From Bilabrum cf. latius (lineage: Eukaryota), in the NCBI GenBank assembly GCA_965178125.1, contig OZ237740.1, positions 1,364,001 to 1,428,000 of the forward strand: a stretch of DNA of 64,000 nt, read 5' to 3'. The notes under the pieces were generated by a model. The model worked only from the letters and a program-made list of their open reading frames with translations. It did not search any database and was not told the DNA's origin. Made by a program: the position numbers and the translations under genes. This document shows, in pieces, positions 15,401-64,000 of this stretch (position 1 is its first letter; every line of letters begins with the position of its first letter).

Positions 15401-15486
15401 CGAAGAATCGCATGGCGGCTGCGGCTGCGGATGCCTGTGCTACTCGAGCTGCAGCCTGAGCTTTGCGCCCACCAGCAACAGCAACA

Positions 15487-15534
<48 letters not shown>

Positions 15535-16328: not shown

Positions 16329-16475
16329 TTGTGATGTATGCTTGGCGGTATGCCTGCAAATTCTACTCAGAACGCAATACTACAAACAACAATCAACTGC
16401 AACTGTGAATTATAGCGTGTACCTTTTCCAGCTAAGGTCTTGTTTTGTCATGGAATCCTGCTCGTTTAAGAACGA

Positions 16476-17114: not shown

Positions 17115-17163
17115 TAGCGATCGAACTTATCCAGATAGCAAGTCAGGCCCTCTCCACAGCAAG

Positions 17164-25689: not shown

Positions 25690-25967
25690 TCCAGCTCGCC
25701 GCTTTGTGCAAGCGTTTCCGTGGCTCGAGCAGCAGCAATTTCGAGCACCACCAGTATCTGCCTCTACCTCTGCTGGATCTCCGATCAGGGCCGCCCAGTG
25801 CAAGAGTTATATTAAATTCAATGAACGAATGTCCACAGGCGCGTAATATGCTTACCTTGGCCCGTGATACCGCGGAAACTGTCGGCGCTTGTCCGGTCGA
25901 GGTCGCCGGTGGTGGTCGCAACAGGGTTGCATATTGCCCGAAGTGAAGCGCAGTATCCCTGCGTGCC

Positions 25968-38499: not shown

Positions 38500-38974
38500 T
38501 GATAAAGCATCTGCATTTAATGGAGCGGCACCAATTGGACTGGAGGATTGCAAGTACGCTAGCGAACTGCGAGCCGATGGTCGCTCTATGTAGTTATAAA
38601 AGTCTTACCCCCCTAACGCCTCCCAGCCCCCCTCCGGGCCGCTACCCGCAATGCCATAGTGTAATTAAGAGTGCTTCTTGGCGTTCAAGCCGCAAAGCAG
38701 CGGATGCCTCGGCAATGAGAGGCAAAGTTGAAATCGATGGTTGCGACCGCGGCGTGCGACCACACAGAGCTCGCACAGAAGCCTGGGCTCGACATGTTTC
38801 ACCGTTTGTTGCGGCGACAAGAAAGCACTCAAAAGGTTTAGATTCACGCCAAACAAGCGTGCGCGTTGCTGCCATACCGAAAGGGCGGCCACGCGCCAGA
38901 ACGCACGGCGACACGGGGCACTAGGAACTTGGGAGGCTCCACCAGTGCAGGTGCTGCTCCATTTTGGGCGCACA

Positions 38975-40396: not shown

Positions 40397-40877
40397 GGTG
40401 CTATGACCGTTAGTAAGCTGCACGCTGTAGCAAACGGATCAGTGGGGTACAAATATCCACTGACTTAAGTTGCCACACCACAAGCAAGTAACGAAATAAG
40501 TTGCCACACAAAGCAAATCTAGTTTACTAGAATCTAGTTGCGGAAACAGTGGCGAACCTCTGCGAGCGACTCGGAACGTTCTTTCATCATCACCAAAATC
40601 GTGTCCAATATCTTTGCCGAGCTAACGGTACAATACGCCGTGTATTTGACTGGTACGCCCATCCATTTAACAAAAAATACTATAAGTATGGTAAGTAGCA
40701 CCAATAATGGCGCATTAAAACACTGCACCTCAGTTGGGAGTGGATGCTTGCAAGGTGGGAGCTAGCTGGGAAATTAAAGGTGCACCCGCCTTGCATGCAC
40801 TGGACTTGCTCGCTCCGTCCCGCACCATAGAAAACGACTATTTTATTCATACATTTCCATGCAAGCAGTCATCGGAG

Positions 40878-43455: not shown

Positions 43456-46400
43456 TCACAGCGATTTCTGGAACCTGGTCTCATCGCACCACTGCCGCGC
43501 GTTCTGGAACATGCGGAGCCAAGGAGACGCCTTGAGCTCCCGCTTCCACTCGGTGGGCATCCACGGCCACTGCCACGTGAGGAAGCAGCGCTCCGGGTGC
43601 GGCATCATTGCCAAGTGCCTGCCGCAGGGGGAGCACAGCCCCGCGATGCCCTGCGGGGACCCGTTCGGATTCAGGGGGTACCGCTCCGTGGGTGCGCCCT
43701 CGTCGTCCACGTACCGCAGGGGGGCCAGCCCGCTCTTCTCCACTGCCTCGAGGACCGCCGGGTCTGGGAAGAAGGCCCTCCCCTCTCCGTGGTCCACGTG
43801 CACGCCCAGCACGGAGCCCTCCATGCCCCGGAGCATCACGGAGGGTGACTTGCCCACGGCGATGCTGCTGAAGCGGCTCTCGAACCGGCGGGAGGCGTTG
43901 TGCACGAACCTCGGCTGCTTGGACGCAGGCAGGCCGAACCCGTCGCCCTTCGCCTCTCCCCCATCGATCTTCCCATCGCCCTCCGCGGCCCCCTGAGGGA
44001 ACGGCACCATGCCCAATAGGCCCATGAGCTGGCACCCATTGCAGACGCCCAGAGAGAATGTGTCCTCGCGCGCCAGGAACCGCTCGAACTGCCCCCGCAC
44101 CTCGGCGCTGAACAGGATCGAACCGGCCCACCCCTTGGCAGAGTCAAGCACGTCCGCAAACGAGAACCCGCCCACGAAGGCGACCCCTCGGAACCTGTCC
44201 AGAGAGGCCCGCCCCTCCTCCAAGTCGCTCATCGAGACGTCCCACGGAGCGAAACCCGCTGCGTAGAAAGCCCCGGCCATTTCCCTGTCCCCATTGGAGC
44301 CCTCGGCGCGCACGATGGCCACGGCGTGCTTGCGGTGGGCGGGGATGGACAGCAGGGGCGCAGGTGTGTCGGCGGGCTCGAAGCCGAGCGCCCACTTGGG
44401 CGCGTGTCTCTCTCGCAGGCCCTTCTGCTCCTGCTCCACGCATGCCAGGTCAGTCTGTCTCCGCTCCAGCTGAAAGGACGTCTCCTCCCACCTGTCCCGC
44501 AGGTCCCGCACGTCGTCCTCCAGCACCACGAGCGCGGCGCTCGCCTCGTCTCCCGCCGTGGGTGCCACCGACACCGACACCTTGGTGCCTGCGGTGGTCT
44601 GCCCGATGACGGCGGCAGGCACCCCCGCCTCCCGGATGGCGCCCACCACCTCGTCCTCCTTGCCCGCGGGCACCTCCAGGACCACGCCCAGCTCCTCGGC
44701 GAAGAGAGAACGCAGCAGGGAACCAACAGCCTCGTCCGAGTCCCCGCTCCAGCCGCTCGGCAGCAGCACATCTGCATCATTGGGTGTACTGTCCTTATCT
44801 TCGTCTCCCTACTCCTCGTCCTCTGCATCGTTGCCCGCCGCGTCCTCCTTCGCCTCCTCTTCCTCCGCACCGCCGGCAGCAGCACCCCCGGCACCGGTCC
44901 CTGCCTTGAGCCCGGGCTCCGCATCCTTCCCCCTGAGCTGCAGCTGCACCCCGCAGTTGCCCGCGAATGCCATCTCCAGCACGGCCACCAGCAGCCCTCC
45001 GTCCGAGACGTCGTGCAGCGACAGCACCTTGGACCCGCTCGCGTCAAGCAGGCCCTGCACCGCGTCAAACCCCCGCCGCAGCACGTCCGCATCGTCCAGG
45101 TCCGGCGGGCAGTCGCCCACCTGCCCGAACACGTGGGCCAGGCTGGAGGCGCCCAGTCGCGCGGGGGCCGCGAGCCCGCCCCCGCGCCTCCCGCTCAGCG
45201 GGACGTGGACCAGCACGGAGGCCCCTGGCGCCTTGAGGTCCGGGGTGGCCACCACCCGGATGTCAGGGCAGGGCGCGTAGGTGGTGATGACCAGCTGCCC
45301 GGGCGCCTTGACCATCTCGTCCCCGGGGCAGCGGGCCGCCATGGAGAGCGAGTCCTTGCCCCCGTCCACCGAGAGCCCCACGGCCTTCATGGCGTCCGAC
45401 ATGGCCACGGCTGCGTCCCAGAGGGCGGCCCCCTCGCCGGGCAGCTTGGCGGCCCACATCCAGTTGGCGCTGCACTTGACGTCTTCCAGCCCCGAGATCC
45501 GGGCGGCCATCAGGTTCGTCACGGCCTCTCCAACTGCCCCCCTAGCCATGGCGGCCGGGTCCAGCAGGGAGCGGATCCCTTGTTCCCCCACGCTGGAGGC
45601 CGTGCCCACGGTGTCCAGGTAGGACGAGGCCGTCACGGAGCAGTCTGCCAGCGGGGTGTGCAGCGGGCCCACGCACTGCTGCTGGGCCACGAGTCCAGTC
45701 ACCGAGCGGTCCACCTTGTTGGTCAGGAACCGCTTCGAGCCCACGCTCATGAGCCGCAGCACGCGATCGAGCGCCGCCCGCGCCGTCAGGTCGGCCGGCA
45801 GCGTCAGCGGGCTCGAGGGTGCGGGAGCGCGCTTGAGCTCGTACGTCTTCGGCTTGAGGCCGCCCAGCACCTTGCCCACGTCGATGCGCACGGGCGTGCT
45901 CCCGTCCTTGCTGTCCTCCACCACCACGTCCGGCTGGTCCTTGACCTCCCCCACGAACTCGCACTCGACGCACTCCCGCTCGCACAGCTCCTTGAACAGG
46001 TCCAGGCTCTCCTTCCGCAGCAGCAGCGCGTCGGACTCCTGGTACTCGGCCCCCCAGATCTCCAGCACCGACATGGTGTGGTCGCCCAGCCGCACCTTGC
46101 GGATGTCGATGCGGCCGCCCATGGGCTCGCAGATCTCCTTGAGCACGTTGCAGTTGCCCCCGGCGCCCTGGTCGTGGATCGACACGATCGGGTTGCGCTC
46201 GCCCAGCTCCACGCATGCGCGGATCACGCGGTTCACCTTCTGCGCCATCTCGGCGTCCCCCCTCTGCACCGCGTTGAAGTCCAGCGCCGCGTCGTTGTCG
46301 CCTTGCATCATGCTCGAAGCCGCGCTCCCGCCCATGCCGATGCGGTAGGCGGGGCCCCCGATCTTGGTGATGACCATGCCCTCCTCCGGGGCGTCCTTGA

Positions 46401-48130
46401 GCGCGTGCGCCTCGTCCAGCAGACCGATGCCTGCGGAGAACATGATGGGCTTCACCCACTCCCGGCGCTCTCCCGGGCTCGCTCCCTTGGCCGCCGGCAG
46501 CCGCAGCCCGAACGACCTGGCGAAACCGCTCACCACGGGCTCCCCAAACTTGTTGCCGTAGTCGCTGGCCCCGTTGGACGCGTCCGTGATGATCTGCGCG
46601 GGCGTGGCCAGGCCCTCGGGGTACTCGAACTCGCCCACGCCGCCCTCCTGCTCCCACTCCATGTCGTACCCAGGCAGCCTCAGAGCTCCCACGCAGTAGG
46701 CGGCCACGCCAACAGCCACCAGGGACCCGCGGCCCGTGGCGTGCGTGTCTCGGATGCGCCCCCCAGTGCCTGTCTCAGCCCCGGGGAAGGGAGCCACGCC
46801 CGAGGGGAAGTTGTGCGTCTCCGCGGTGAGCAGGAGGTGCCTGGTGCGGGGCACCACCGCCATGGGGCTCGAGTAGCCAGGCTGCGAGGGCACCAAAAAG
46901 GGCGAGGTGAAGCCCTTGATCGCGCTCGAGTTGTCCTCGAAGGCCACCACGGAGTTGTGCTTGCGGCCGTCCAGAGTGGAGCCCACGACCTGCATGAGGT
47001 TCCTGCCGGTGTCCTCCCCGTCGATGACCATCCTGCCCTTGAAGAACCAGTGCCTTGAGTGCTCCGAGTTGGACTGCGAGATGTCGAACAGCTCCACCGT
47101 GGTGGGGTCCCTCTTGAGGTCCTTCACGAACAGGTCCGTGTACAGATCGATGTCCTAGTCGTCCATGCCAAGCCCCATGCTCTTGTTCACCGCGCGCAGG
47201 GCAGCCGCGCCCTCCGCCAGCAGCGGCACCGTGTTCCACGGCTCGGGGGCGGCCCCCGATTCGAAGGTCTCCAGCGGGGCCCTCAGCCTCATCTCGGTCA
47301 TGCGGTCGTGCACAAGCCCCGCGAGTACCACCTCCTCCTGCTCCACGGAAGGGGGGCTGCTCCCCGACGAACCCTTGCCGCCGCCTGCCGCAGCCGCGGC
47401 ATCCGGGGCGGGTTCCATCTCCACCAAGTACCGTCGGTAGCGCTCCAGGCGGCGCACCAGCAGCCCGCACCTGCGGCAGATGCTGCACGCGTTGGTGGAA
47501 AAGGCCGACGTGAACGCCAGCCGGGGGCCCACCTCCATCACGAACGACCGCCCCCCGGCCTTGTCGGCCCCAGACGGGCCTTGCAAGAATGAAGAGCCAG
47601 CAAGGTTACTCGGACGCGATGGATCGCTGAGGAGCCATTTAAGCCGGTTTTGTCCTGCGGCGGGTGGGCACATCGAGCAGGCAGCACGCAGCGTGACCGT
47701 AAGAACCAGGACGTCGGGGGTCTGGCAGCCTACGAAGGCACAACTAGTTGCAATGCTCGATAGCGACATACCATGCATCTGCACTATTTCACTCACCATC
47801 GGCACCGATGGACTCGAACGAAACTCCATCCTCGAACTGAATGTAAAGAGACGATTCCGTAGAAACCTTCGATACTCGTGACAGAGAGCCAATCTCTTCA
47901 AGTTTGGAATTGAATTTAGCGATCAATTCAATTTGGCCCGCCTTGGACAGACCAGGGATGCGGAACAGCTTCAGAATCGACCCAGACTGCTTTGGCTGCG
48001 AGGCCCCCGACGCTGCAGATTCCGCAGCAGCGGCAGCGGCGGTGTCATCCTTGGCGCTTGCGCGCTACGCCACGACATATTTTCCTAATGCTATCAGGCT
48101 ACCGAACGCGATTGCGTCAACGGAGGCCAT
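43456..48130 (-). CDS. purL: Phosphoribosylformylglycinamidine (FGAM) synthase, large single-chain type; intron 47655-47796
   Basis: 'EVGPRLAFTSAFSTNACSIC', 'QSNSEHSRHWFF', 'AETHNFP', 'DYGNKFGEP', 'SIHDQGAGG', 'FLTNKVDRSVTG', and glutaminase motifs 'GVCNGCQ' and 'MMPHPER'. In-frame TAG at 48065, 47155 and 44809. GTGAGT...CGCAG intron. Ends in TGA. Confidence 0.97.
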
Positions 48131-48399
48131 ATTGCGGATGGGAGGCGCAAGATGCGACTCTATTTCTCCAAGTTCGAAATCGAATGACCGGGGAACGTTC
48201 GAGAGCTCAGCAGTGGCTCCGAGTCGCCGTGGTTGGGGAACTCGACGCCGCAGGAAACGGGTTTCGCGGGTGCAGATTGGCTCGTCGGGTCCCGGATCAA
48301 GGGCTCATTGGCCGAATGATAGGTGCGCGAGGGATGAAAAAGAAATGCACTGTGTACAAGCCCCCGTGCACCACAGCGCCGTACCCATGGTGTCCTAGC

Positions 48400-50119
48400 T
48401 CACACCCTCTTGGCCAGCTCCTCTGCCTTGCCAGTGTAGCTGCCCGGGGTCAGTTGCAGCAGCCCCTGGATGGCCTCCTCGGGCACCCCGTCCTTCCTCA
48501 GCCCCCTCACGAAGTCCCTCATCCTCGAGGCGTCCACCCGCTTGCCCCTAGTCAGCGCCTTGAGTTTCTCGTACGGCTGGGACACGCCGTACCTCCTCAT
48601 CACCGTCTGCACGGGCTCCCCCAGCACCTCCCAGTTGCCCTCCAGGTCTGCTGCCAGCCTCTTCTCATTGGGCACCACACGAGTGAGCCCCTTCTGGGTG
48701 GAAGCGATCCCCACCAGAGTGTGGGCGAACCCCGTGCCGATGGTCCGCAGCACGGTCGAGTCCGTGAGGTCCCTCTGCATGCGGGACACTGCCAGCTTGC
48801 GGGCCAGGTGCTGGAACATGGCGGTCGCAACCCCCAGGTTGCCCTCGCTGTTCTCGAAATCGATCGGATTCACCTTGTGAGGCATCGTGCTGCTGCCCAC
48901 CTCGCCCTTGAAGGTGAGCTGCTTGAAGTACCCCATCGAGATGTAGCTCCACATGTCCCGGTCGAAGTCCAGCAGCACGTCGTTGAATCGAGTGAGGGAA
49001 TCGAACATCTCCGCCTTGTAGTCGTGCGGCTCGATCTGGGTCGTGTACGTGTTCTGGTGGATGCCAAGGCCCTCTCGGATGAGCTTGCCCGCCACAGCCT
49101 CCCAGTCCACGCCCGGGTATGCCACCATGTGCGCGTTGAAGTTCCCCACAGCGCCGTTCATCTTGCCCATCACGGGCACGGCGGCATACGTGTCCCGGTG
49201 CTTCTGCAGGCGCATGCTGCGGAGGATTGGGATGGAGTTGTGGATGGGGAGAGGGGCATGAATCGGAGCGGTGGACGGGGAATCACCTTCAAGTTGGCCG
49301 CGCAGCCGGGGAGTGCGCTGGGGTGCACGGGGGCAGGGGCAAAGCGGCATCTAGACGTGGCTCTCTGCAAGGCAGGAAACTGTACTACATTGAAAAACAC
49401 GGCCTTGAAACTCACACGACATTCGCGATCTCCTTGCCGAGCGTGGTGGGCGAGGCAGGTTGCCCGTGCGTGTGGGAGAGCATTGGGATGCTAGCGAACT
49501 GGTGGGCCATGGCCCGCAGCTTGCTGATCAATGCGTCCATGGCGGGGAGCATCACCGCCGAGCGACTACGGTCCAGGGCCTGGGCATACGCCAGGTTGGT
49601 GATGTCCTCACTGGTGCAAGCAAAGTGCACGAACTCGCTGAGCTTGCTCGTCTCGCCCCCCATGCCTGCCATCCTCTCCTTAATGTAGTACTCTACTGCC
49701 TTCACGTCATGGTTCGTTGTCCGTTCGATGTCTTTCACACGACGGGCGGCCTCTTCGTCAAAGCCAGACACCAAAGCCAGCAGGGCTTTCCTGTCCTCTG
49801 CCGGAAACACCGGCACCTCTTCGACGCCTTCGCAATCGCCTAGTGCGAGTAGCCACTGGATCTCGGCATTCAGCCTGTACTTAATGATGGCATGTTCACT
49901 GAAATAGTTCCTCAATCGCTTTGTGCGACCGCCGTATCGCCCGTCAATAGACGAGATTGCAGTCATCTGCGTCAAATCAAGGTCGCGTTCCTGGTCTAGC
50001 AAGGGTTTGTTGGTCAAAGCACTCTTTCCAGAGCACGATGAAAAGTTCCAGCGAGAAACAGCCAGAACCCCGCCCGCTGCGAGCAATTTCACGCCAATTC
50101 TGCCGCAAGTCCGAAGCAT
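48400..50119 (-). CDS. purB: Adenylosuccinate lyase; intron 49217-49415
   Basis: 'DGRY', 'TNHDVKAVEY', 'HFACTSEDI', 'THGQPASPTTLGKE', and the signature 'GSSTMPHKVNPIDFENSEGN'. GTGAG...CGCAG intron joins NVV|MRLQK. Ends in TGA. Confidence 0.97.
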
Positions 50120-50721
50120 GGATTCCTGCGAGTGCCGTCAGAATTTAAAGCATCAAGAATCATCAAGCATCAGCACAGACTTATTCGGAGACAATAATGA
50201 TAGAAACACCAATCATTCGAGAAAAATAGCAGAGAAAGCACAGGCTCACGAAAAGCTCGGGCAAGATGCGCTCCAGACGTCTCACAACCACTAAACCGGG
50301 ACATCGGCCTCAGCACATGCACGCCCTGCAACTGGGAAGGGAAGTGCCGCAAGTGGGTCATGGATGCGGTGCACGCATACGTATTTCCATGTGCATCGTG
50401 CGCATGAACACGGTGCGACTATGGCAGCGCCGCTTATCCCCGAGTGGTGTGTGCACGGTTCCCACAGGCGGTGAAACACAGCTGGAAGCTCACAAAATGC
50501 AAGGAGGAAAGGTTTAAACTGCCTATGCAAAGTCAAAGCGTCGTTGGTCAAGCGCTTACACCCCCACTCAGTGCGAGGAGCACCAGTTGCGATCACCAAG
50601 CCCATTCGCAACCAAGAGCCCCCCTGCCCCCTACACAATCGAGGAAACCACGCACTCGAGACAATGCCGTTCTAAGAAACTTTAGCGCCTCGGAGTCCTC
50701 CATGAATTCTTCTCAGTAGAT

Positions 50722-51336
50722 TTACCGGTGCTTTGGCTTCCGGAAGAGCTGGTGGATCCCCCACTTCTTCTCCCTTGGGGGACGCTGCTTGAGGTACTGC
50801 TCCCATTGCTCCTCTTGCTCGCCCAAACCCTTCTCAATACGAGCTAGTCTCTCATCAAGGCGTTTATCGTAGGCATGGCCCTTCGGAGGCTTGGCTACCA
50901 TCGCCATCTGCTAGCGGTCCCAGGTAGGGTCCCAACCATCTGCAGAATCCTTCGACCACTGCCCATACTTCCCGTCCATGACTGCTTGCTTACGGACTCT
51001 TGCCCTCCGCACTGCACTGAGCTTTGGCTTTCGCCATTTCCCTTCCGTAGTCTTGTACGGCTTCACGTCAACCGAGGGCTCCTGCACCCTGGACTTTGTC
51101 ACCTGGGCTAGTGTCCTAGGTCTTCGCCTTCCGGCAAGCTTTGCATGCATTTCCATCTATTTCGGGGTCAACTTTCTGTATTCCAACGGCTAATCCTGCT
51201 GCAATGGAGCTTTGTAGTCTACATCCGGGGCAACTGCCTAGAAACTTGCTGAAATCACCCTACACGGTGAAATTAGTGGCCTAGAACTATGATGGAGGAG
51301 ACTGTGAGACCCTCGTACTAATGTTCGCCGCAGCAT
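50722..51336 (-). CDS. Mitochondrial ribosomal protein mL59 (MRPL25)-like
   Basis: TAG read-through yields the presequence-like MLRRTLVRGSHSLL..., then 'GKWRKPKLSAVRRARVRK' and 'KPPKGHAYDKRLDERLARIEKGL'. Four TAGs. Ends at TAA 50722-50724, with an in-frame TGA after two further codons. Confidence 0.7.
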
Positions 51337-51464
51337 AGGATACTGTAAGCGTACAGGAGGCGTCTATTTAGTTGGTGTTGCCATCGATCGTGTAAATATT
51401 ACGTGCTGTTTGGAAAACCAAACTATTCGCGGCAGGTTTGCATTTGAAAAGCAAAAGATAAGCC

Positions 51465-52594
51465 ATGTTTGAGGCCCGCCTGAACGATGCCGAGGTTCTG
51501 AGGAAGATTATCGATGCTATGAAAGACCTTGTCAGCGAGGCGAACTTGGATGTGTCCCCGGAAGGAGTTTCTTTGCAGGTAAGACAACGGATTGGTGCAA
51601 TTCAAATTTTGCGCCTGGATTGTCGAGCCAATTTGCTCATGCTGCCCCTTGGGATGGGTTCATATACCTGTGATATGTATATTATATACTTTGTGCATGT
51701 GGGGGCACGGCGGATAGCCGGCTAGGGGCATTTGAGTAGGGTGGACTGACGTTTTGAACAGCAGGCACCGGAAGCCTTTTTGATCCGCCTTGCCCGCTTC
51801 TTGCTCGATCCGTTTCCCTTCGCAGGCTATGGATTCTTCTCACGTTTCACTCGTGCACTTGCACATGGCATAGAACGCCTTTGACAGCTACAGATGTGAC
51901 AAGAAGATTTCCCTTGGTTTGAACCTCCAGAACCTCACCAAGATCCTCAAGTGCGCCAAGAAGGGAGATTCGGTGTCTCTCAAGGCCGAGGATGAGGGAG
52001 ATAGCATCAGCATCACGTTTGATAGCGAAGGTGAGACGCCTAATTGTGCATCCGGCAAAGCCCGGTGGCCGGCCATGTCGTGTATCTCGCAGCCCTTATG
52101 CCAACCTCTTTTCTGCCACCGCAGACGATGGTCGAGTGTCTGAGTTCGAGATGAAGCTCATGGATATCGACTCTGAGCATCTGGGCATCCCAGAAACCGA
52201 GTACAAGGTGGTGGTGGTGATGCCATCCGGCGAGTACTCGGGCATCATCCGCGACATGGCCACGATCGGCGAGACCTGCTCCATCCAGGTCAAGAAGGGA
52301 ACCATCGCGTTCGGTGTGGAGGGAGATTTGGGAACTGGGTCCGTTGAGCTCGCCGAGCGCGCACCCCCTGCCGACAAGCCCGATGCGGCCGCCGTGGAGA
52401 TCTCCATGGAGGAGGCCGTCGACCTGAGCTTCGCGGTGAGCTACCTGCAGCACTTCTCCAAGGGCTCCGGGCTGTCGAGCACCGTGTCGCTGTCCATGAG
52501 CCCCGGTGTGCCGTTGGTGGTGGAGTACCCTCTGAACGAGACCTCTTTCGTGCGGTACTACCTCGCACCCAAGATCGACGACGAGGAGGAGTGA
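51465..52594 (+). CDS. PCNA: Proliferating cell nuclear antigen; introns 51579-51825 and 52031-52124
   Basis: MFEARL...SLQ|AMDSSHVSLV..*NAFDSYRCD...KILKCA...FEMKLMDIDSEHLGIP...YYLAPKIDDEEE. In-frame TAG at 51871-51873. Ends in TGA. Confidence 0.97.
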
Positions 52595-52994
52595 GCGGCC
52601 CGGGGCGAGCACCGAGCACCTGCGCAGAGCGAAATTCCGCCGAAGCAGGGCGCTTGGAACATGAAGCCATAGACTGCTATTCTGTATTCTGACTATTCTC
52701 TGTTCCAGACGCACACAAGCCAAACCATACATTCGCCACGAGACTCTGCAAGGTGGGCTCCGCAACGGGCTCACCGCCATCCATATCTGATCCATATGGA
52801 TACCCTGCGGACACTGCTAGACATGGCCGCAAGGAACCCTTCTAATAATCGGCTAGCAGTCTGCGTCGGCAATGCGGTGATCCTCGTGGCTGAGATCGCC
52901 GCCGAGCTCGACCGCGCAGCCCCCATGAGCATCGCCTATCCAGCTACGAACCCCGGCCCGGCCGGACCCCCGGCCGGAACTCTCAGTGAGTCTC

Positions 52995-55900
52995 TCAGTC
53001 GTCCGCCACGAAGCACCTCAGGATGTCAATCACGCGGATGCAACCCACCGGCCGCACACCGTCGTCCACGAAGTACAGTTGGTGGATCCGCGTGGCGGCG
53101 AGAGTGAGCACGACCTTCTGCAGAGGGTCCCGCAGCCTGCAGTAGATGCTCGGGTTCATCACGTCTGCCCCCTTGTCGATCTGCTTGAGGAAGCTCTGCA
53201 CAGGCAGCTGCAGCGCGCTGAAGTTGGCCCGCCGCGCGATGGTCTTGGCGTCGCTCAGAGACACGTTGGTGGCCATGGCCCCGTACTCGTCCACGATGGG
53301 GGCCGCCGTGCTGCCCGCGTCCCGCATGCGCCGCATCACGTCGATGGCCCGGTCGCGGAAGGTGCCCACGACCATACCGCTGCCCAGCCGCTGCCCCAGC
53401 CCCAGCTCCTCGATGCTCAGCTGTCCCAGGGGGCCCAGCATGTCCAACCGCGTGGCCAGGAACCTGATGACGTCAGCCTGGGTCACCAGCCGCACGATCC
53501 TCCCTTCGGCGTCCACGATCGGCACCGCGTGCACGCCCTCGCTCAGCACGCGGGCCGCGTACAGCAGGGGACAGCCGGACGGAAGCGGGCGGAAGGCCCA
53601 TGAGGGCGTGAAGGAGGACGGCGAGGGGGACCCTGCGCCCGAGTCCGCATCAGACCCGTGCTCCGAGCCGCCCTCCGAGGCAGCGGGGCTGCCCAGCGAG
53701 CCGCCCGAGTGCGCGGCTGGCCGCGGGCCCGAGGCATCTGCGCCGCCCTCCTCTTGCCCCCCCGCACTTGCGCCCGTCAGCACGGGGGCGGGTGCCCCGA
53801 TGGTGGACCCGTGCACGCGCCGCAGCGGGGACCCCGAGGTGGAGGCAGCCACGGACTGGGAGGGCCCGCCCGTCAGGTGCCCGGAGCTGCCCGCCTGCAG
53901 CGACTCGGAGAGCATAGAGGCGGCTGCACCAGTGCCGCCAGCCGCACCCCGGCTGTCCTGGGAAGCCGGCGGCTGCGTGCCCACGGACCAGCCCCCCTCA
54001 GAGGCGGATGACTCGGCCCTTGAGATGGACCCGTCCCTCCCCTCCTCACCACCCGCTGCTGCTGCTGCTGCTGCTGACGATGGGGCGCCCTCTCCTGTCT
54101 GCATGGGCGAGAGGAAACCGCTGGGGAGCCCCGAGGAAACCGCGCCTGTCCCTGCCGTGGCAGAACTCGAGCCTCCGTCCACGGACCCACCCCTCCGCCT
54201 GCGGAACACGTCCCGGATGGGCTGCCGGAAGAACCTCTGCTGGTGCGCGAGGGCCTCTCTGAGGTGCCCCACCCCCTGCAGCGAGGACTTCTTCTTGCTG
54301 AAGATGTCCAGCATGTACGAGAACACGTCCAGCAGGTGCACCACGCCCACGAAGCGCCCTGCCTCGTCGTCGTACACGGGCATAGACAGGATGGAGTGGT
54401 CAGACATGGTCTTGAGCACGCTCTCCACAGTGTCCGTCACCTTGGCCGTCTTCACGTGACCAGTCACTCGGCCGCCGCCAATCTCATTCACGCTCGTCAC
54501 ACTCAGTAGCCGCAAAACGTCTGCATTCCGGCCGGCAGACCCCAGGGAGGCGCCACTCATCGAACGCCCGATGGTGGTCGGCGCACCCATGGAGCCCCTG
54601 GACCGCCTCGACAGCACGGCCTCACCACCCCCCGCACTGGGCGGCAGCTGCAGAACCCATCCCCCCGAGGAGGCCCCGGCTCCCTGCGCGGCCCCCAGTG
54701 GGGGGCTGCCCCCCGCCGGCATCCAGAGCCCGTCCCTGGTGCCCAGCGCCACCGGCACCATGCTCGGGTCCACGGGGGCGCCCAGGACGGCGCCGCGCAC
54801 CGCCGCTCGAGCGGAACTTCCAGGCCGCGTGGCGACGGCCAGCTGGCTGTTCTCTGCCTGTCCCCTCTCCCCCGGGTCCTCCGGCGTGGCCATGCTCACC
54901 GCGGAGAGGCCGCGCGCCACGGCGTCCGCGTGGGAGGGACCCGCAGCTGTGGGCACGGCCTGCAGCAACCCGGAGCCGAAAGGGGCCTCTCCCTTGCCGC
55001 TGCCGGCGCCCTCGCGCGCTCCGGTCTCCTTCTGGCTACCACCCGCCTCATCGGGCCCGCCCTCCTCCCTCTGTTCCCCGCTCTTGGACAGCGGGCTGTG
55101 CCGGCGGCGGTGCGTGGGCGACCGCCCGTCCGCCCCCCCCCTGCCTGCCCCCGCCCCCAGGGGGCTGCCCCTGCGCACCGCCGCCGATCCGGCCACCGAT
55201 GCGCTGGAGAAGGCCCCCGCCTCCCCCCACCTGGACGGGCGCTCCCCCCCCTTCGCGGGGGGCTCAGTGCCCTTGGGCGGGGGTGTCCCCGCGGTGGGGG
55301 CGTCCTCCTGGGCCTTGCCATCATTTTCCAGGGCCAGCTGCGCGGCGCGGTGCTGGGCCTCGAGCCGGCTGGGACTGGGACTGGGGGCGGCGCCCCACTC
55401 GGCAGACCCCCCCCATTGCATCGCCCCGCCGAGGGGGGAGGGGGCGGGCGCGGCGCCCACCACGTCTCCCGCTGCCGCCGTCAGCACCCCGATGGCGTGC
55501 AGCCCCCTGCGCGCCTGCTGCTCGGTGATGGAGCGCGCGCACAGCTGCACCCCGTGGTGGAACACCCGGCACTCGTATCCACCGAACGGCCAGCGGAACA
55601 CCGCGGCGCCGTGCAGGCGGTCCCGCACCCAGAATCCAGACACGGTGCCGCCTCCGGCCAGCTGCACGGTGCCAGCGCCGTGGCGAGTGTCTGCCACCCA
55701 CTGTCCCTCGAATGTGTCCCCGCTGGCGTACACGATTGACCCCTGCCCGTGCCGCTTGCCCGCCACCCACTGCCCGTCAAACACCCCTGTCAGTGCCCAG
55801 TCGTCCGCGCTGCCGCTGCCCTCGGACGGCGGCGTGCCCGACCAGGACATGCCGCTAACAGCGGCTGCGGCGCTCATGGCAGAGGCGGGACCGCCTTGGG

Positions 55901-56510
55901 GAGGTGCCATGGTGCCATCGGCTCCGGGAACTCCAGCGCCTAAACTACCTGCAACGTACGTGAAGATCCAGCCACGTCCGCGACCGTGCCGGCACCCCCA
56001 CTACCACTCGCCGTCGTACAGCCTAAAACCTGTCCTAGCGTCACGCAGCATGCCTTTCCCGTGGGCTAGAAGTACAGAGGGCCTGGTTGCGCCCGTTGGG
56101 CTGTTGCTTGCACCTTCATCAGCTCCTTCCCCCACGTTGCCTGGCGCAGCCGAAGAGACCTCGGGGATCCTGGAACGTGGTCCATTGCCTCTTGGTGGGG
56201 GTGGGACTGGAAACGCTTCAGTACTTGCCGCTTCTTCGAACATCGGGGCACACCATGTGCGCGCTTGCTCCTTCGATTCTCCGTCGCCTTCCACGGGCAG
56301 CCAAGGGAGGTACTGCACCCGCGATTGCTGCCGCTCCAATACTTTCCACGTAGATGATTTTACGTCAAGGAGCGACAGTATGTTTGCTTTTACCTCGGCT
56401 GGGCTGGACCGCACCGTGCTACCAGCGTACTGCGCATGGGGGCTGCATCCGGCAAAGGAAACGTCCACGCTACGCTCTCCGGGAGCAGCACTGCCTGTTT
56501 TCATCGACAT
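52995..56510 (-). CDS. MORN-repeat plus CBS-domain (Bateman, AMPK-gamma/Sds23-like) protein, ~1170 aa
   Basis: MORN repeats 'YDGEW*WGCRHGRG', 'FDGQWVAGKRHGQGSIVYASGDTFEGQW'. CBS motifs 'ILSMPVYD..FVGVVHLLD', 'VHAVPIVD..LVTQADVIRFL', 'AAPIVDE..VSLSD', 'RIHQLYFVDD..GCIRVIDILR'. TAG at 56001-56003 joins the two ORFs. Ends in TGA. Confidence 0.8.
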
Positions 56511-56699
56511 GGAGACGAATGAGCAGACAAAGCAGACACAAGATCGGACAGACCTGTGCTTGTTTACGAGTGATAGTTTGGGTTGGCGACCAGCTTGGCA
56601 TCACGGCGTGATGGGCCGGTGATTGACGCTCATCATCATTACGGCGGTTGCTACCAACGGCACAGCCACCAGTGCAGGCCGGTCTACGCAAGCAATCAG

Positions 56700-58478
56700 T
56701 CAGTGTGTACTTCGCAACAAAAGGGCCATCACTTCGCCAACTGCGGCAGCAGCCGCTTCGGCAGACTCGATCAGTTTCGGAGCAGCCGCGGCATCGCTAG
56801 CACCACTGGCGCTGCTCGCGGCCCCAGCTTCTTCATCAGGGGCGCTGCCTGCACCCGTATCTGCACCTGCACCACCGCTACCGCCGCCCATGGAGCCGCT
56901 AGCCGTCTCCGTCCCATCCCCGGCAGGGACGTGCAGCACCGTCACCGCGGGCACATCGCTCTCGTCCCCGGCCGCGCGGGCCGCCTGAGCCGCCGCCTCC
57001 GACCCCCCGACGCACACGATCACCGTCGGAGTCGCCGGAGCTTCGACGCCCTCGGCCGGTACCGTCGCCCCAGCATTGGCACCGGGCACCGCCGCCGCCC
57101 TCCTCGCCTCCCTCACCAGCTGGGTCCGCCGGGGAACAGTGTCCCCGACGGCCACCTCTGGGGCAACCAGCAGGTCGCTCGTCACACCCGTGCTCAGCGC
57201 GGCTAGCACTGCGTCGGCCACGGCGCGAGTGTCCTTCCCGTGGCTGTCGCTGAGGACGAGACACCGGCCCCGGCCCGCTGCCAGGGGCGCACTGCCCTTG
57301 TCCTCGCTCTTGCTGCCGGCTGCCTCCCCGGCCACCGCCCGTCCAGAGGCTGCTGCTGCTGCTGCTGCTCTTTCTGCGGCCCAGCCGGCCACTGCCCCCG
57401 CCATCAGTGTCTCCAGCGACACTTCCCCCTCCAGCGCACCCCCGCTCTCCCCCTTCCCCTTCCCCTTCCCCTTCCCCTCCTCCCCCAGGTCGAAGCCTCC
57501 CCCCGTGATCATCTCGAAGAGCATGCAGTACCTCCTTGACAGCTCCACCACCAGGTCACGGGGGGCGGCAGGGACGTCAACGTCCTTGTAGGGGTCGCAT
57601 CGCTCCTTGTACCACAGCCGCAGGAACTCCTTGTCCACATTGGCCGGGCTCTTGCCCTCCTCCATGCGTGCCTCGTAGTCCTGCGCCAGCCAGTAGCGGC
57701 TGCTGTCCGGCGTGTGGATCTCATCCACGAGCACGACCCTGCCCGTGGAGGGGTCTCGGCCCAGCTCGTACTTGGTGTCCACCAGCAGCAGGCCCCTCTC
57801 CAGCGCCTTCTTCTGCCCGAACTCGAACAGCCGCAGCGCCGCCGCGCTCGCCTGGTCCCAGTCGCCCTGCGACATCCAGCCCTCCTTGACGATGTCGGCG
57901 GCGCTGATGGGGCGGTCGTGCTCGGCCTCCTTCGTGGTGGGAGTCAGCAGCGGATGATCCAGCCTCTGGTTCTTCACGAGGCCTTCCGGGAGCTCATGGC
58001 CGCAGTACGACCGCACGCCGCGGTTGTAGTGCGTCCACATCGAGGTCGAGGTTGAGCCTGTGATGAACCCTCTGACCACGAATTCGATCGGAAATACCTC
58101 ACACTTCTTAACAATCGCCAGGTTTGGGTGAGGGCTCGCTACTATGTGGTTCGGCACGATGTCTTTGGTCTGTTCGAACCACCAAAGGCTAACCTGATTC
58201 AAGACCTGCCCCTTGTACGGCACACAGGTCAGGTTCCGGTCGAACGCACTGAGCCGATCAGTGGCAACGAGGACAACGTGATCACCAATATCATAAATGT
58301 CTCGAACTTTACCAGTTATCTTGGTACCAAGGCCAAGCGAGGTCGCAGAGATCACGCGACCGGAATCGAGCCGCTGCTACGCAGCTTTCTCGTACTTTCC
58401 TGGGTCTTTTGCCGACTGAACATCGACACCATCAGGAATAGCACGAGCTACTGCGGAGTCAGTCGCTGAACCACTCAT
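56700..58478 (-). CDS. purC: SAICAR synthetase with a degenerate PurE-like C-terminal extension
   Basis: 'GKVRDIY', 'TDRLSAFD', 'KGQVLNQ', 'PIEFVVRGFITGS', 'LVDTKYELG', 'DEIHTPDSSRYW', 'DKEFLRLWY'. ATG 58478 is reached through one TAG. Ends in TGA. Confidence 0.95.
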
Positions 58479-58770
58479 GATTGCCGCAAAATGTGGCGCA
58501 GTTGCACCACGTTGCCGACCAAGATGCGATTCATCGCATGAATGTGCGTAAGCTTGCTTCTCCGCTACTGCTGGCCATATTTCTGCGCTTGAGTGTCAGC
58601 CCAAGACTTTGAACCGCGACCCATACATTTGTAAGTGCTATTTGAATGCTAAAAGCTCTCTGTCGCCTGTAGTGGATCGCCAAATGTTCGTGAACCGGGA
58701 AGACAACGCGATTTGAAACTCGCCGTCTCCCCCAAACCACGCTTCGTCTTCGCAGAAATCTAAGACAGAA
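58479..58770. promoter_or_regulatory. Putative bidirectional promoter between purC and purF
   Basis: 292-bp AT-richer gap between divergent ATGs. Contains CAAGATGCG (58520-58528) overlapping the inverted repeat ATGCGAT-TC-ATCGCAT. Confidence 0.55.
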
Positions 58771-60605
58771 ATGCAAGCGCCGTCAAACGGATCTAGTGCT
58801 GTGGCTGCGTTGCCATTAAGCTCAGACCGCGACTCAGCGGGCGCCCTGGCCCTTGCACGCGATCATGCCGACAAGCCGGAGCATGAGTGCGGCGTGTTTG
58901 CCGTCTACGGCTCGCCTAACGCCGCCCGAACTATTTTCTTTGCATTGTTCGCGCTATAGCATCGCGGACAGGAGAGCGCGGGGATCGCTACGTCTCATCA
59001 CCATACGTTTCACGTGAAGCGAGGCATGGGGCTTGTTTCGCAGATTTTCTCCGAGACTAGCATGTCTGCACTCACGGGAAGGATGGGAATTGGCCACACG
59101 CGCTACTCGACCGCCGGCTCGTCGAGCATCGGCAACGCACAGCCATTTTTGCTCGAGACGGACCTCGGCCAGATTGCTGTGGCCCACAACGGGCAGCTCA
59201 CTCGAGTCAAGTCCCTGCGGAGGCAGCTCATGCGGAGGGGCACGGGGCTATACACCTCGACGGACAGCGAGGTCATCGCCCAGCTGCTCGCGCGGCCAGT
59301 AGGGGCCAGCAAGCTGGCGCTGGGCTCCATCGCGATGGAGACGGAGGACGAGGACGAGGACGAGGACGAGGGGGCTCACGCGGGAGCAGGTGCCAAAGGG
59401 GCAGGGGCAGAGGCAGGGCCCCCGAGCAAGAAGAAGGCAAGGACCGACGAGTCCGCAGCTTGGCCCGATGACCCCGGGGCGGGCCCCCTCTCCCACGCGG
59501 AGGGCCACAAGCAGGCGCAGGAGCTGGGCGACCGGATCGCGGCCCTCATCCAGCGCGCCGAGGGGGCCTACTCGTTCGTGGTCATGTCCAGGACGGCCAT
59601 CTTCGGGGCCAGGGACAGGCTGGGCCTCAGGCCGCTGTGCATTGGGCAGCGGACGAACGAGGACGGCAGCAAGAGCTTCATGTTCGCGAGCGAGTCGTGC
59701 GCCCTTGGCACAGTGGGGGCCCACTTCGTCAGAGAGGTCGTCCCGGGGGAGATCGTGACCATCGACCGCACCGGGGTGTCCTCCAGGTACGGGCTGGGGC
59801 TCGAGCTGCAGGTCAAGGTGCCCCGCGCGCTGTGCGTGTTCGAGTACGTGTACTTCGCTCGGCCCGACTCGCTGATGGAGGGGCAGCTGGTGCACGCGGT
59901 GCGGCAGAGGCTGGGGGCAGCGCTCGCCAAGGAGAGCGCGGTGGCCTCTGCCGACATCGTGTCGGGCGTGCCTGACTCGAGCATCGCGGCGGCGATCGGA
60001 TACAGCATGGAGAGCGGCAAGCCCTACACGGAGGTGTTCTGCAAGAACAGGTACATCGGTCGCACCTTTATCCAGCCGGACGACACCCTCAGGAAGAACG
60101 CCATCCACCTCAAGTTCAACGCGCTGGCGCACAATCTCGAGGGCCGCTCGCTGGTGCTGGTGGACGACAGCCTGGTGCGGGGGAACACCCTCCGCAAGCT
60201 GGTGCCCATGCTGCGCGAGGCGGGCGCCCGGGAGGTGCACATCCGCATCTCCAGCCCCCCGCTGCGGCACCCCTGCTACATGGGCGTGGACATCGGGTCC
60301 TACGAGGAGCTCATCGCGCACCGTGTCAAAGACGTGGATGCCATCCGGAGGCACATTGGGGCGGACTCGCTCGCCTACCTCTCCCTGGACGCCATGCTCG
60401 GGGCGGTTAGGGAGGGCATCAGCGACCAGATCTCGTCGGGGCAGGAGCATCCACCGGGGGAGGCAGGCGCACCGGCCGCTGCTGCCGCTGCACCCGAACG
60501 CACCGAGTCGCCGAGCATGCTGCTGGCCTCCAGTGGGGTGCCCCCCGTGCCCGTGCCCGTGCCCGCCGCAGGCAAGGCGGTGGAGGTGGAGGCCGGGCAC
60601 GGTGC

Positions 60606-60638
<33 letters not shown>

Positions 60639-61101
60639 TTCTGCTGCTGCTGCTGCGTCCTCGGCTGGGGGCGCTCCCGCCGAATCGGGAATGGTGGAGG
60701 CCGTGGGCAGCAAGCGGGGCCGGTCTCGCTCCGGGTCCGTGCACGTGCTACAGGGCGATGCGGTAGCCATCGCGGAGGGGGACCAGAAGGGTGAGCTTGG
60801 CCCGCTCGTGGCGCAGGAGGGGGCGGGCGGAGAGGGCCAGGGCAACGGGGCCGGGCCCAAGATGATGCAGTCGCCGCCCAAGCTGCTGGGGGCGACCACG
60901 GCAGGCGCGGCGCCCGGTTCCGCAGGGAAGTCTCTCCGGCTGGCGGGCCAGTCGTCCTCCCCCGCGCTGCGGCCTAAGAGCGGCATGCTGAGCCCCACGG
61001 CTACTGCGACGGTGCCCCCGCCCCCTGGAGGGTACGGCAAGCTGGATCATTGCTCAGCTTGCTTCACGGGCAAGTATCCACTGCCTGTGGAAGAGTGGTG
61101 A
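58771..61101 (+). CDS. purF: Amidophosphoribosyltransferase (GPAT), propeptide and [4Fe-4S]-type
   Basis: Propeptide ending 'KPEHE|CGVF', then 'L*HRGQESAGI', 'IGHTRYST', 'AHNGQL', 'CVFEYVYFARPDS', 'RYIGRTFIQP', 'VDDSLVRGNT', 'PCYMGVD', 'CSACFTGKYP'. Ends in TGA. Confidence 0.97.
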
Positions 61102-61450
61102 GGTGGAGAACTGCCAGTGATGGAGGCGGGTGCGGTGCCTAGGCTGGTCGTGGCGGCAGCCGCGAGAGGGAGCGGCAGGAAATGAGCGAACTAGGCCGGC
61201 TTCAGAGTGCCTGCGTCCTGTTATATACATATCAAATGCGTGATCAAATCGGTATGCCCGCCCGGCAAAATCGGTGACCGCCGACTGCACCAAGCCGGAA
61301 GAGCACGTTCGAATTTGCGACAAACGACAAGCCGAAACGTAGCTTCAAAAGTGATACCTTGTGCTACAGTTGCACCTTGTTGTATGCTACGTCTGATTGC
61401 ATAAGGCAAGCCGATCCATTCTTGTATTTGCAACACATTCACGGGCTGCG

Positions 61451-62542
61451 ATGGCGTCCTGGTGGGACCGATACAAGCAGCGGTTTTGGAGTACGATGGA
61501 TATGTGCGGCCCGCCGTCATGGAGGTATCTTGGAACAACATAGGCATAGTTGCAAGCTGCACGTGATGCTCCGAGCTCAACACGGGCAAAGCAGATGCTC
61601 GCAGCTGTCTGCCACCCTGAAACTGGGGAGGAACTTCCACTGCCGTTCCGCATGAGCGCTCATGTCCCCATGAATACAGTCCTATTGGTAGGAATGCTCT
61701 CTAGCCGCAGCGTTGCTGGCACCGCTCTGTGGCAAGTCGCCAACAGCGGCTTCAACGCGCTGCAATTCTACTACAACCGGTCAAAGACGAATCACGTGTC
61801 AGACGAGCGGCTTGCCGGCAGTTTCCTCTGCGCCACGGCTGCCGCTGTCGCAGTAGGATACTCGCTGCGGTCCTGGGAGCTGTCCCAAGTGGCACTGGCC
61901 CGGGGCTCTCCAAGCCCGCTAGTGCGCGCGGTTGGTCTATTCGTGCCCTTCGTGGCGGCTGCTGCCTCCAAGCCGCTGCAAATCGGTATCATGCGCTCCG
62001 ATGAAGTCACCAAGGGCGTCCGCATCCTGGATGCACCGGCGGCAGGCAGCACTGGCAGCCAATCCGAGACTTCCAAGAAGCGCGACCCGGCGGCACCCAC
62101 CCCTGGGTCCCTCGCCCCCATGGAGGGGGTGGGCCCCTCCAGGGTGTGCGGTGCGGCGGCCATCGGGACCACCATCGCGACCCGGGTGCTCTACCTAGCC
62201 CAGCCCATGGTGCTGCCCCCATTGCTCTTCGCGTGGCTGGACCAGCGGTCGTCGTGGTGGCAGGGGCTGGCTCGAGGAGGCACGGTGGCGAGAGGGCTGC
62301 ACTTCGGGCTGAGAGTTGGCATCATCGGGCTGCAGTCGGCCGTAGCCACGCCCATGTGCGTGGCCCTGTTTGACCCTGTGCAAGCCATGCCCGTGTCCTG
62401 GCTGGAGCAGAGCGTCAGGGAGGACGTCCGGGAGGCGCGCAGGCAGCGAGCGCGCTTCGGGCACGAGGGCAAGGATCTGCCGGAGGAGACAATCCGCCGC
62501 GCCGAGTCTGAGTCTCCGGTGTATTTCTTCCGTGGTATTTGA
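61451..62542 (+). CDS. SFXN: Sideroflexin (mitochondrial tricarboxylate/serine carrier family)
   Basis: ATG 61451 via two TAGs. 'HPETGEELPLPFRMSAHVPMN', 'WQVANSGFNALQFYYNRS', 'VPFVAAAAS..IGIMRSDEVTKGV', 'VYFFRGI'. Ends in TGA. Confidence 0.9.
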
Positions 62543-62632
62543 GAGCGGAGACGCCCCCTCCTGCCAGTAGTGCGCATTCATGGCTGGTTGCTTGGCGTGC
62601 ATGTGCCACGTGGATAGGCCAGTTGCATGGGT

Positions 62633-63016
62633 TCAATGTCCATCCCCGCTCGCTGCCTCCCCATTGGCAGGCCCTCCAGCCGATGATACTTCCTCCCTTG
62701 TGGATGTATCAGCCCCGTCTTCCGTTACAGACTCCCCAGACCCTCCCTCTGACCCGGCTGCCTCCAATAACTTCTTTCTTCGGGCGGCGTTCCTCCTTGC
62801 AACTAGCTTTCGGGTCCTCTCCTGCTCCGCGGGCGTCATTTTGTCCCAGTTCGAAATTTGAGACATCGTGCCGTCAGAGTTGAGCACGATTGGACCGAGG
62901 TGATCAAACTTCATTTCGTCGGCACTGGGCACCGAGGCTGCCGCACTTCCATCTTCAAGCGCTAGTGTGCCGTCAGCCGAAGTGCCGTCTCCACCAGTGG
63001 GTATTTCACCAGCCAT
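62633..63016 (-). CDS. Small conserved uncharacterised protein
   Basis: 'KFDHLGPIVLNSDGTMSQISNWDKMTPAEQERTRKLVARRN' resembles a small uncharacterised family I recall from fungi and protists. ATG 63016, ends in TGA. Confidence 0.7.
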   Translation of the reverse strand: MAGEIPTGGDGTSADGTLALEDGSAAASVPSADEMKFDHLGPIVLNSDGTMSQISNWDKMTPAEQERTRKLVARRNAARRKKLLEAAGSEGGSGESVTEDGADTSTREEVSSAGGPANGEAASGDGH

Positions 63017-63180
63017 AGCCTTGCAGAGGTTCAATGACCAAGAATTTGTAAAGATTGGTACAGCTGCCCACGTGAAAGGCAAGGCAGCCGGTTTTAATCT
63101 TCTTCTTGAAAGTTCAACACAGGCAGCCGGTTGCAACTGCCACTGGCACTGGATTGGATCCACCCGGGCCGGTGGACGCA

Positions 63181-64000
63181 TCACTCTAGCAGCTCATCAC
63201 CTGGTTTGGCAAGTGCTCGTGGTACCTTCTCTCGCACACCCGCCTCATGCCCCGCCCGCGCGCGAAGGTACGCCACCTCGTCCGCCCCGAGCGACGACGC
63301 CCCCACGGCGGCGGCCTCCTCTGGCAGCAGCTCGCCGTCGGCCTCCCGCTCCGATGGCCGCATCCAACGGAACACACCGGCCGTGGGCTCGCCCCGTCCG
63401 CCATACAGGGACTGGTACCCCCGCCCTTTCCTCCACGACCCACCACCCCCTCCATGCCCCCCACCTGCCTGCCCCTGCCCCTGCCCTTGCCCCTGCCCCT
63501 GCCCTCCCTCCAGCAGTGCCCTGTCCCTGCGCCTCGCCTCCGCCGCCTCCCTCGCTGCCATTCTACGGGCCCTCTTCACCCCGGCCTCGCCCCGCTTCAC
63601 CCCCGCGGGCACCTGCTTCGTGTCCCGCACCAGGTCGGGCCTCTCCCTCGCACGCACTTCCCTCGCCCTCGCGTCAGCTGCCTCGGCGCGGTCCGAGGCG
63701 CGAGCGAACACCTCCGCCACCACGTTGTTGAACCCGTTCACAACCACGCTGCCGTGCACAGGGCGCGCGTTCAGCCTCCGCGGCTCTCTCGCTGCCCCCA
63801 CCGCGTGATCGTGACCCGTGCCACTCACGAGCGTGCTGCCCCGCCGGACCACCCCTTGCTGGTGGAGGGGACCCAGCGGCCCGTCAGGGTCCGCCACCAC
63901 CCCGCCCAGCGGCAGGCCGCCCCTCCGGATGGAGGCCAGCCCCGCCCCGCCCCCCAAGTGAGCCTCTCGCAGAGCACGCAGGCCCTCGGGCCCCCGGCGC
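63181..64000 (-). CDS. 3' part of an unidentified gene running off the window edge
   Basis: Frame open from 64000 to TGA at 63181-63183, with GC-rich codon usage and a (GQ)n tract. Confidence 0.6.
   Translation of the reverse strand, partial: RRGPEGLRALREAHLGGGAGLASIRRGGLPLGGVVADPDGPLGPLHQQGVVRRGSTLVSGTGHDHAVGAAREPRRLNARPVHGSVVVNGFNNVVAEVFARASDRAEAADARAREVRARERPDLVRDTKQVPAGVKRGEAGVKRARRMAAREAAEARRRDRALLEGGQGQGQGQGQGQAGGGHGGGGGSWRKGRGYQSLYGGRGEPTAGVFRWMRPSEREADGELLPEEAAAVGASSLGADEVAYLRARAGHEAGVREKVPRALAKPGDELLE

Follow-up and report, generated by a model that had tools for sequence, protein, structure and literature searches.

Four purine-synthesis genes in two tight pairs

The 64,000-nt stretch of Bilabrum cf. 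latius DNA analysed here (contig OZ237740.1, positions 1,364,001 to 1,428,000 of the forward strand; hereafter the window) carries four genes for enzymes of de novo purine synthesis, purL, purB, purC and purF, which lie as two tight pairs in the 17,646 bp from the purL stop to the purF stop (43456-61101). An earlier note on this DNA had claimed four enzymes of the pathway within about 17.6 kb, and matches to Pfam and to the Protein Data Bank (PDB) placed all four where it had put them. Its end coordinate for the cluster, 62542, needs correcting: this is the stop of a sideroflexin gene 3’ of purF, which the note had missed, and not the stop of purF (61101). Read with TGA as the sole stop, the region from 43.4 to 62.6 kb holds eight genes, whose models are all in frame from an ATG start to a TGA end. 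The four purine-synthesis genes and the spacers within their pairs are as follows.

43456..48130, minus strand: purL, large single-chain formylglycinamidine ribonucleotide (FGAM) synthetase, 1510 amino acids (aa); exons 47797-48130 and 43456-47654, intron 47655-47796 (GTGAGT..CGCAG, 142 bp); three in-frame TAG; stop TGA; identified by Pfam, alignment with Cafeteria and spliced contigs
48131..48399, minus strand: purB-purL spacer, 269 bp from the purB stop to the purL ATG
48400..49966, minus strand: purB, adenylosuccinate lyase with ASL_C domain, 455 aa; exons 49416-49966 and 48400-49216, intron 49217-49415 (199 bp, GT..AG); no in-frame TAG; stop TGA; identified by Pfam and spliced contigs
56700..58478, minus strand: purC, long-type stand-alone SAICAR synthetase, domain at residues ~55-370; no intron; one in-frame TAG; stop TGA; orphan low-complexity C-terminal tail of ~220 aa
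58479..58770: purC/purF spacer, 292 bp from ATG to ATG, head-to-head; holds CGCATCTTG at 58520-58528 and an intron in the 5’ untranslated region (UTR) of purF
58771..61101, plus strand: purF, glutamine phosphoribosyl pyrophosphate (PRPP) amidotransferase of the B. subtilis/eukaryote type, 776 aa; low-complexity inserts; 5’UTR intron 58631-58755 (125 bp); one in-frame TAG; stop TGA

The spacers have exactly the lengths that had been reported for the purL-purB tandem (269 bp) and for the head-to-head purC and purF (292 bp). Pfam matches to purL comprised GATase_5 (4.2e-102), FGAR-AT_PurM_N-like (1.2e-52) and AIRS_C (1.8e-42), plus FGAR-AT_N and the linker, and purB matched Lyase_1 twice (1.1e-26 and 1.7e-19) and ASL_C (8.2e-44). 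purC matched SAICAR_synt (1.5e-66), with mycobacterial and yeast SAICAR synthetases as its best PDB matches and human PAICS reaching merely 1.5e-06. For purF, which matched GATase_6 and GATase_7, the PDB search returned the amidophosphoribosyltransferases 9q0n (1.2e-118), B. subtilis 1gph (1.4e-110), Arabidopsis 6lbp (2.3e-103) and E. coli 1ecb (9.2e-86).

Introns, transcripts and genetic code

We compared the window with Logan contigs of four public runs, the DNA-like X1 and the runs X5, X6 and X7, which belong to two further studies, neither of them that of the best DNA run. No run is recorded as RNA; that X5-X7 are RNA we infer from their spliced contigs alone. The introns of purL and purB were skipped in all three RNA-like runs, and no such joints were seen in X1, which bears out the earlier claim of spliceosomal introns (GT..AG) in these two genes. 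To them must be added the 125-bp intron in the purF 5’UTR, not noted before, whose joint was present in all three runs with a short side of at least 31 letters in X6 only (26 in X5, 30 in X7). In PCNA, one of the genes between the two pairs, intron 2 was skipped in all three RNA-like runs and intron 1 in two of the three. All five introns have the form GT(A/G)AG..CGCAG.

A spliced X5 contig (44643-48867) runs from purL through the 269-bp spacer into the 3’ part of purB, which is compatible with overlapping UTRs or with read-through and is no proof of a single transcript. The 5’ end of the purB RNA contigs lies at 50125. Within each run the contig depths of the four pur transcripts look alike and that of PCNA varies; such depth cannot rank genes, and we did not use it as evidence.

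All eight gene models end in TGA. In-frame TAG codons occur in purL (3), purC (1), purF (1), sideroflexin (2), the MORN/CBS gene (1) and the mL59-like gene (5), with none in purB. The purL TAG at Q256 aligns with the glutamine of ‘SQSNSEH’ in Cafeteria, and the purF TAG at Q81 aligns with that of ‘LQHRGQE’ in 9q0n. TAG had been read as glutamine in purL, purC and purF; each of the three indeed has an in-frame TAG, and conserved-glutamine alignments agree with this reading for purL and purF. Judged from these alignments and stops, the nuclear code is one of the NCBI table 6 type in which TAG encodes glutamine and TGA is the sole stop. A reading of TAA as glutamine would rest on a single in-frame TAA among the eight models (in the mL59-like gene). 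No tRNA genes, hence no suppressor tRNA, were found in the window. A search of the literature on variants of the code turned up no match.

Introns, the TAG code and spliced RNA together exclude a bacterial origin of the DNA. With the TGA-only stop and a GC content at third codon positions (GC3) of 0.72-0.88, in a window whose GC content ranges from 52 to 73%, they uphold the view that the DNA is native and nuclear rather than a bacterial contaminant.

The purC/purF spacer and the purC tail

The first exon of purF, which belongs to its 5’UTR, extends at least to ~58595, and the purC RNA contig stops at 58483, so that the two transcription starts would lie no more than ~110-120 bp apart. This spacing suggests the geometry of a classical bidirectional promoter.

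The C-terminal tail of purC (56700-57389, minus strand) is partly low-complexity, and the purC reading frame continues through it to the stop. Were it a degenerate PurE, the gene would resemble PAICS; we considered this and found it unsupported. With E up to 10, the C-terminal 229 aa gave no Pfam family and no PDB match; hhalign against the PurE-like tails of fused homologues returned a probability of 1.1%; and phmmer, run exhaustively against 1.84 billion representative proteins, found no match. BLASTP yielded just short collinear fragments (E 1.1-25).

Within purF, a GAGGAC repeat (59344-59371) encodes an acidic, Glu/Asp-rich insert. In each of the four runs its summed k-mer depth is very high (12,830 in X1), and the repeat appears to be a motif repeated genome-wide or in contigs of other organisms.

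Proximity of the four genes compared with chance

We modelled random gene order for an assumed 6,000-15,000 genes, of which an assumed 9-14 belong to the pathway. Sets of four pathway genes are then expected to share a run of seven successive genes 1.8e-8 to 2.2e-6 times per genome, and Monte Carlo simulation of random gene order produced no such case in 2,000,000 trials. Even when multiplied by a look-elsewhere factor of ~1e5 genome-by-pathway combinations, the expectation stays at or below ~0.2 (~0.02 mid-range). In addition, the members of both pairs are immediate neighbours, with spacers below 300 bp. The proximity of the four genes is non-random and far beyond chance; clustering no greater than chance, which the earlier note had named as part of one way in which its reading could fail, is not what we found. 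With four non-homologous genes of one pathway within seven genes, the locus is a eukaryotic metabolic gene cluster in the sense of at least three such genes grouped in a nuclear genome beyond chance.

Relatives of the four genes

The relatives of the four proteins point in different directions. Over its full length, purL shares 59% identity with that of Cafeteria roenbergensis (locus tags FNF29_00432, FNF27_01941 and FNF31_00078), with lineage-specific inserts common to both, and judged by this protein the stramenopile Cafeteria is the closest named relative. Cafeteria was not among the 120 purC matches listed, nor among the 120 purB matches listed. The relatives of purC at 57-65% identity are from green algae, plants, diatoms and an oomycete and include the Francisella PurCD, and those of purB are unnamed metagenome proteins (61-75% identity), bacteria (~64%) and green algae (62%), with gamma-proteobacterial and green-algal types among them.

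A metagenome scan with the purC of a relative (P0070) gave 17 loci, of which those with flanks were bacterial operon-like, with no eukaryotic synteny. One metagenome locus has the order purQ-purC-purF and a long-type purC 64% identical to a protist-like purC. We also came across fused PurC-PurE-GATase_5 proteins of 880-920 aa (P0074/P0252, P0035, P0056 and P0042), one of them named from a Candidatus Magasanikbacteria genome.

A candidate shared motif

A k-mer comparison of three promoter regions returned one common 9-mer, CGCATCTTG, whose three copies are all in the sense direction of purL, purB and purC (minus strand).

48148-48156, minus strand: 17 nt upstream of the purL ATG
50262..50270, minus strand: copy near purB, upstream of its ATG (by 295 nt) and of the 5’ end of its RNA contigs (by ~137 nt)
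58520-58528, minus strand: 41 nt upstream of the purC ATG

These are the only exact copies in the 64 kb, where 0.87 are expected, and 4 of 100 shuffles reach three. A 9-mer common to the three promoter regions arose on any strand in 14 of 3000 dinucleotide shuffles and on the same strand in 4 of 3000. We regard CGCATCTTG as a candidate cis-element, and the statistics as suggestive only (see the controls below).

A 10-mer common to the purC/purF spacer and the region upstream of sideroflexin, CAGTTGCACC, was within chance expectation and was dropped. When the promoter sequences were inspected by eye for the yeast-type TGACTC, the sole occurrence was inside the purC coding region.

Comparison with known gene arrangements

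The animal PPAT-PAICS (GPAT-AIRC) genes form a divergent pair with a 70-bp spacer and a score of 0.43 across 64 eukaryotes (PMC2871058, Table 2), which places them among the ten most conserved divergent human pairs in that set (PMC2871058), and a bidirectional promoter has been described for these two divergently arranged purine genes (PMC1487180). At our locus, likewise, purF and the purC-encoding gene are divergent, separated by less than 1 kb (292 bp) and both expressed. In contrast to the animal pair, purC is stand-alone here, with no detectable PurE, and the pair is linked to purB-purL within 17.6 kb. The resemblance to the vertebrate PPAT-PAICS pair seen by the earlier note thus holds for orientation and short spacer; it does not extend to the PurE fusion, and the limitation to vertebrates has to go, the pair having been scored across 64 eukaryotes (PMC2871058).

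Clusters for primary metabolism described from eukaryotes include those for galactose and allantoin utilisation in fungi (PMC4347624). With these the present cluster shares non-homologous genes of one pathway in a nuclear genome, with their own promoters and with interlopers tolerated; it differs in that the pathway is an anabolic housekeeping one, not nutrient utilisation or secondary metabolism, and in that it belongs to a stramenopile-like protist. Full-text searches of the open-access literature found no report of a eukaryotic purine cluster of at least three genes, and nothing on eukaryotic purine clustering beyond the animal PPAT-PAICS pair, in agreement with the suggestion that this one was possibly undescribed.

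Bacterial pur operons, such as the 12-gene operon of B. subtilis and purMN, purHD and purEK of E. coli (PMC10912719), bring together the same enzymes. One bacterial locus, in Bacterium BMS3Bbin08 (7450-15420), even has purB, purC, a large purL and purF side by side; its partner genes are distant subtypes, 25-36% identical to the protist cluster genes. The genes studied here differ from such operons in being of monocistronic type, with introns, mixed orientation, spacers of 269-292 bp and a variant nuclear code, and in that the nearest relatives of the four belong to different lineages.

Explanations for the cluster

The locus is a genuine, transcribed nuclear neighbourhood for purine synthesis, made up of two tight pairs, and we consider it probable that it is held together through co-regulation of transcription, which would be the most likely mechanism. 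As in animal PPAT-PAICS, a single bidirectional promoter would serve purC and purF, with transcript 5’ ends no more than ~110-120 bp apart; purB and purL would form a compact tandem unit, across whose spacer transcript coverage is continuous; and all four genes may respond to a common cis-element, for which CGCATCTTG is the candidate. For purinosome assembly, the other role that the earlier note had raised, the analysis gave no support.

Several findings weigh against this reading. The window accounts for four of the ~10 steps of the pathway (purD, purM, purN, purE and purH are not in it), and three unrelated genes interrupt the cluster. Against real-sequence controls the motif statistics are marginal: 157 of 5000 triples of real segments shared a 9-mer (70 of 5000 on the same strand), and the window is rich in low-complexity repeats. 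Copies of CGCATCTTG with one mismatch are not enriched (18 found, 20 expected), and there is no sense-orientation copy for purF and none upstream of sideroflexin. In the assembly of Symbiodinium sp. KB8, moreover, a purL of the 90% cluster that contains the Cafeteria purL is on a 10.5-kb contig, and a purB, in the cluster of a 66%-identical match, is on another contig, of 34 kb. That purL suggests that this assembly holds Cafeteria-like contaminant contigs (P0248, P0373), and the separate contigs give a weak contrary hint on linkage, as the two genes may not be from one organism. These points would be expected if the neighbourhood were real but functionally neutral, having arisen in this lineage through accidental rearrangement of a compact genome and not through selection for co-regulation, an explanation that we rate as unlikely. 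Its difficulties are the chance expectation of 1.8e-8 to 2.2e-6 per genome (at most ~0.2 after ~1e5 looks), the immediate adjacency within both pairs, with spacers below 300 bp, and the conservation of the same divergent purF/purC pairing in animals. A hint in the same direction comes from Joint Genome Institute (JGI) metagenomes, where a purC (P0070, 62% identical) and a purL (P0129, 59%) are both recorded as ‘2 contigs, longest 33307’; the two may lie on one 33-kb contig, which would hint at conserved linkage.

Bacillus-type operons have the gene order purEKBCSQLFMNHD, in which purB, purC, purL and purF form the contiguous central block B-C-(S-Q-)L-F, and the cluster could be the relic of such an operon, horizontally acquired and later ‘eukaryotised’. 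To look for one, we searched the 80 closest bacterial large-purL loci (43-59% identity) with the four proteins. Within 10 kb of purL there was a purB-like gene in 9 of the 80, purC in 2 and purF in 6, and one locus, that of Bacterium BMS3Bbin08, had all four; the purQ-purC-purF metagenome locus, with its long-type purC, is a further point in favour. The bacterial neighbours are nevertheless distant from the cluster genes, with identities of at most 28% for purB, 36% for purC and 49% for purF, far below those of the best relatives found elsewhere, so that transfer of an operon from a single donor is unsupported. Those relatives, at 57-66% identity (up to 75% for purB), are scattered over different lineages: Cafeteria, with its shared inserts, for purL; algae, diatoms and Francisella for purC; gamma-proteobacterial and green-algal types for purB. 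The orientations are unlike those of any operon, and the genes have introns, host codon bias and in-frame TAG. Taken together, mixed orientation, introns and distant bacterial neighbours do not support a bacterial operon or its relic, which the sequence comparisons make highly unlikely. We give still less credence to an artefact, either a misassembly joining unlinked loci, which the earlier note had named as a way for its reading to fail, or a bacterial contaminant. The contigs of X1 do break at 57341-57489 and at 60576-60667, no listed piece covers the whole stretch, and the best DNA run may be the source sample and hence not independent. But the X1 contigs are collinear with the window, with no differing letter in any listed piece, and the two breaks coincide with short coding microsatellites (CCCCTT at 57450-57478 and TCG at 60607-60638) inside the uninterrupted reading frames of purC and purF. 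One DNA contig (48882-57340) joins purB to the 3’ part of purC, a 74-bp contig bridges the break at 48867/48882, and a bacterial source is excluded by the introns, TAG code and spliced RNA described above.

Beyond co-regulation of the pairs, we tentatively entertain a wider possibility, namely that the locus is a selected and conserved purine-supply regulon island of bigyran stramenopiles, in which two co-transcribed or co-regulated pairs, sideroflexin and the cis-element (T/G)CGCATCTTG(C/G) would act together and the purF/purC pair would be convergent with PPAT-PAICS or co-inherited with it. If so, purF-purC would be among the deepest recurrent microsyntenies in eukaryotes.

Primary-metabolism clusters are rare in eukaryotes, and almost all documented cases are fungal, plant or animal. 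Here, in a lineage of heterotrophic protists that has received little study, the bidirectional purF/purC pairing of animals recurs within an expressed cluster of four purine genes. Whether selection for stoichiometric co-expression brings the same genes together again and again can therefore be put to a natural test. The cluster also yields candidate promoters of compact size, and a candidate cis-element, in a lineage from which hardly any regulatory elements are known. The window further documents a GC-rich nuclear genome in which TAG encodes glutamine and TGA is the sole stop; Cafeteria, its closest named relative, has a full-length annotated purL.

Neighbouring genes and the rest of the window

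Three unrelated genes, the interlopers mentioned above, lie between the two pur pairs, and the sideroflexin gene follows purF.

50713..51384, minus strand: mL59-like gene, encoding a small basic protein
51465..52594, plus strand: PCNA, 262 aa; introns 51579-51825 and 52031-52124
52995..56510, minus strand: MORN/CBS gene, 1171 aa, with MORN repeats and CBS domains; one in-frame TAG; identified by Pfam
61451..62542, plus strand: sideroflexin, 363 aa; same strand as purF and 349 bp downstream of it

The mL59 match is weak (E 0.0019, below the Pfam cut-off); the gene is covered by an X7 RNA contig (50543-51355). GC content in the region is lowest here (0.52), and the gene is unusually rich in reassigned codons, with five TAG and one TAA in 223 codons. 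PCNA, with a PCNA_C match of 7.3e-37, has a poly(A) loose end at 52692 in X7. These two genes are also head-to-head, with 80 bp between their ATGs (51385-51464), and so form a second very compact divergent pair.

Sideroflexin (SFXNs, 2.2e-51) is represented by RNA contigs. For its human counterpart SFXN1, a role in mitochondrial serine transport is described, through which one-carbon metabolism and, in turn, purine synthesis are supplied (PMC9495560), and by analogy the gene could be a fifth functional member of the cluster through one-carbon supply.

Pfam searches of the long open reading frames (ORFs) and six-frame scans found no further pur family within the 64-kb window; purD, purM, purN, purE and purH are absent from it, and the absence of additional pur genes accords with what had been said before. 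Six-frame Pfam scans of 6601-26000 and 62543-63999 returned no family at all.

The long ORFs upstream of the cluster encode a BK-type channel, a TAKA-like alpha-amylase, a coiled-coil protein and secreted or unknown proteins, some of them with no Pfam match. The channel gene (28946-38988, minus strand) is a giant BK/Slowpoke-like K+ channel gene with a 2783-aa C-terminal ORF that contains RCK and BK_channel_a; the Ion_trans part is in an adjacent ORF, and the large ORF has 19 in-frame TAG and one in-frame TAA. The alpha-amylase (38978-40438, minus strand) matches PF00128 (3.1e-44) along with domain C and has a signal-like N-terminus; by eye, we take it to resemble fungal TAKA-type GH13 enzymes. 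Further upstream, in a region with no Pfam-detectable gene, lies a hexanucleotide array of 80.5 copies of CTGGTG with 98% matches (20781-21263).

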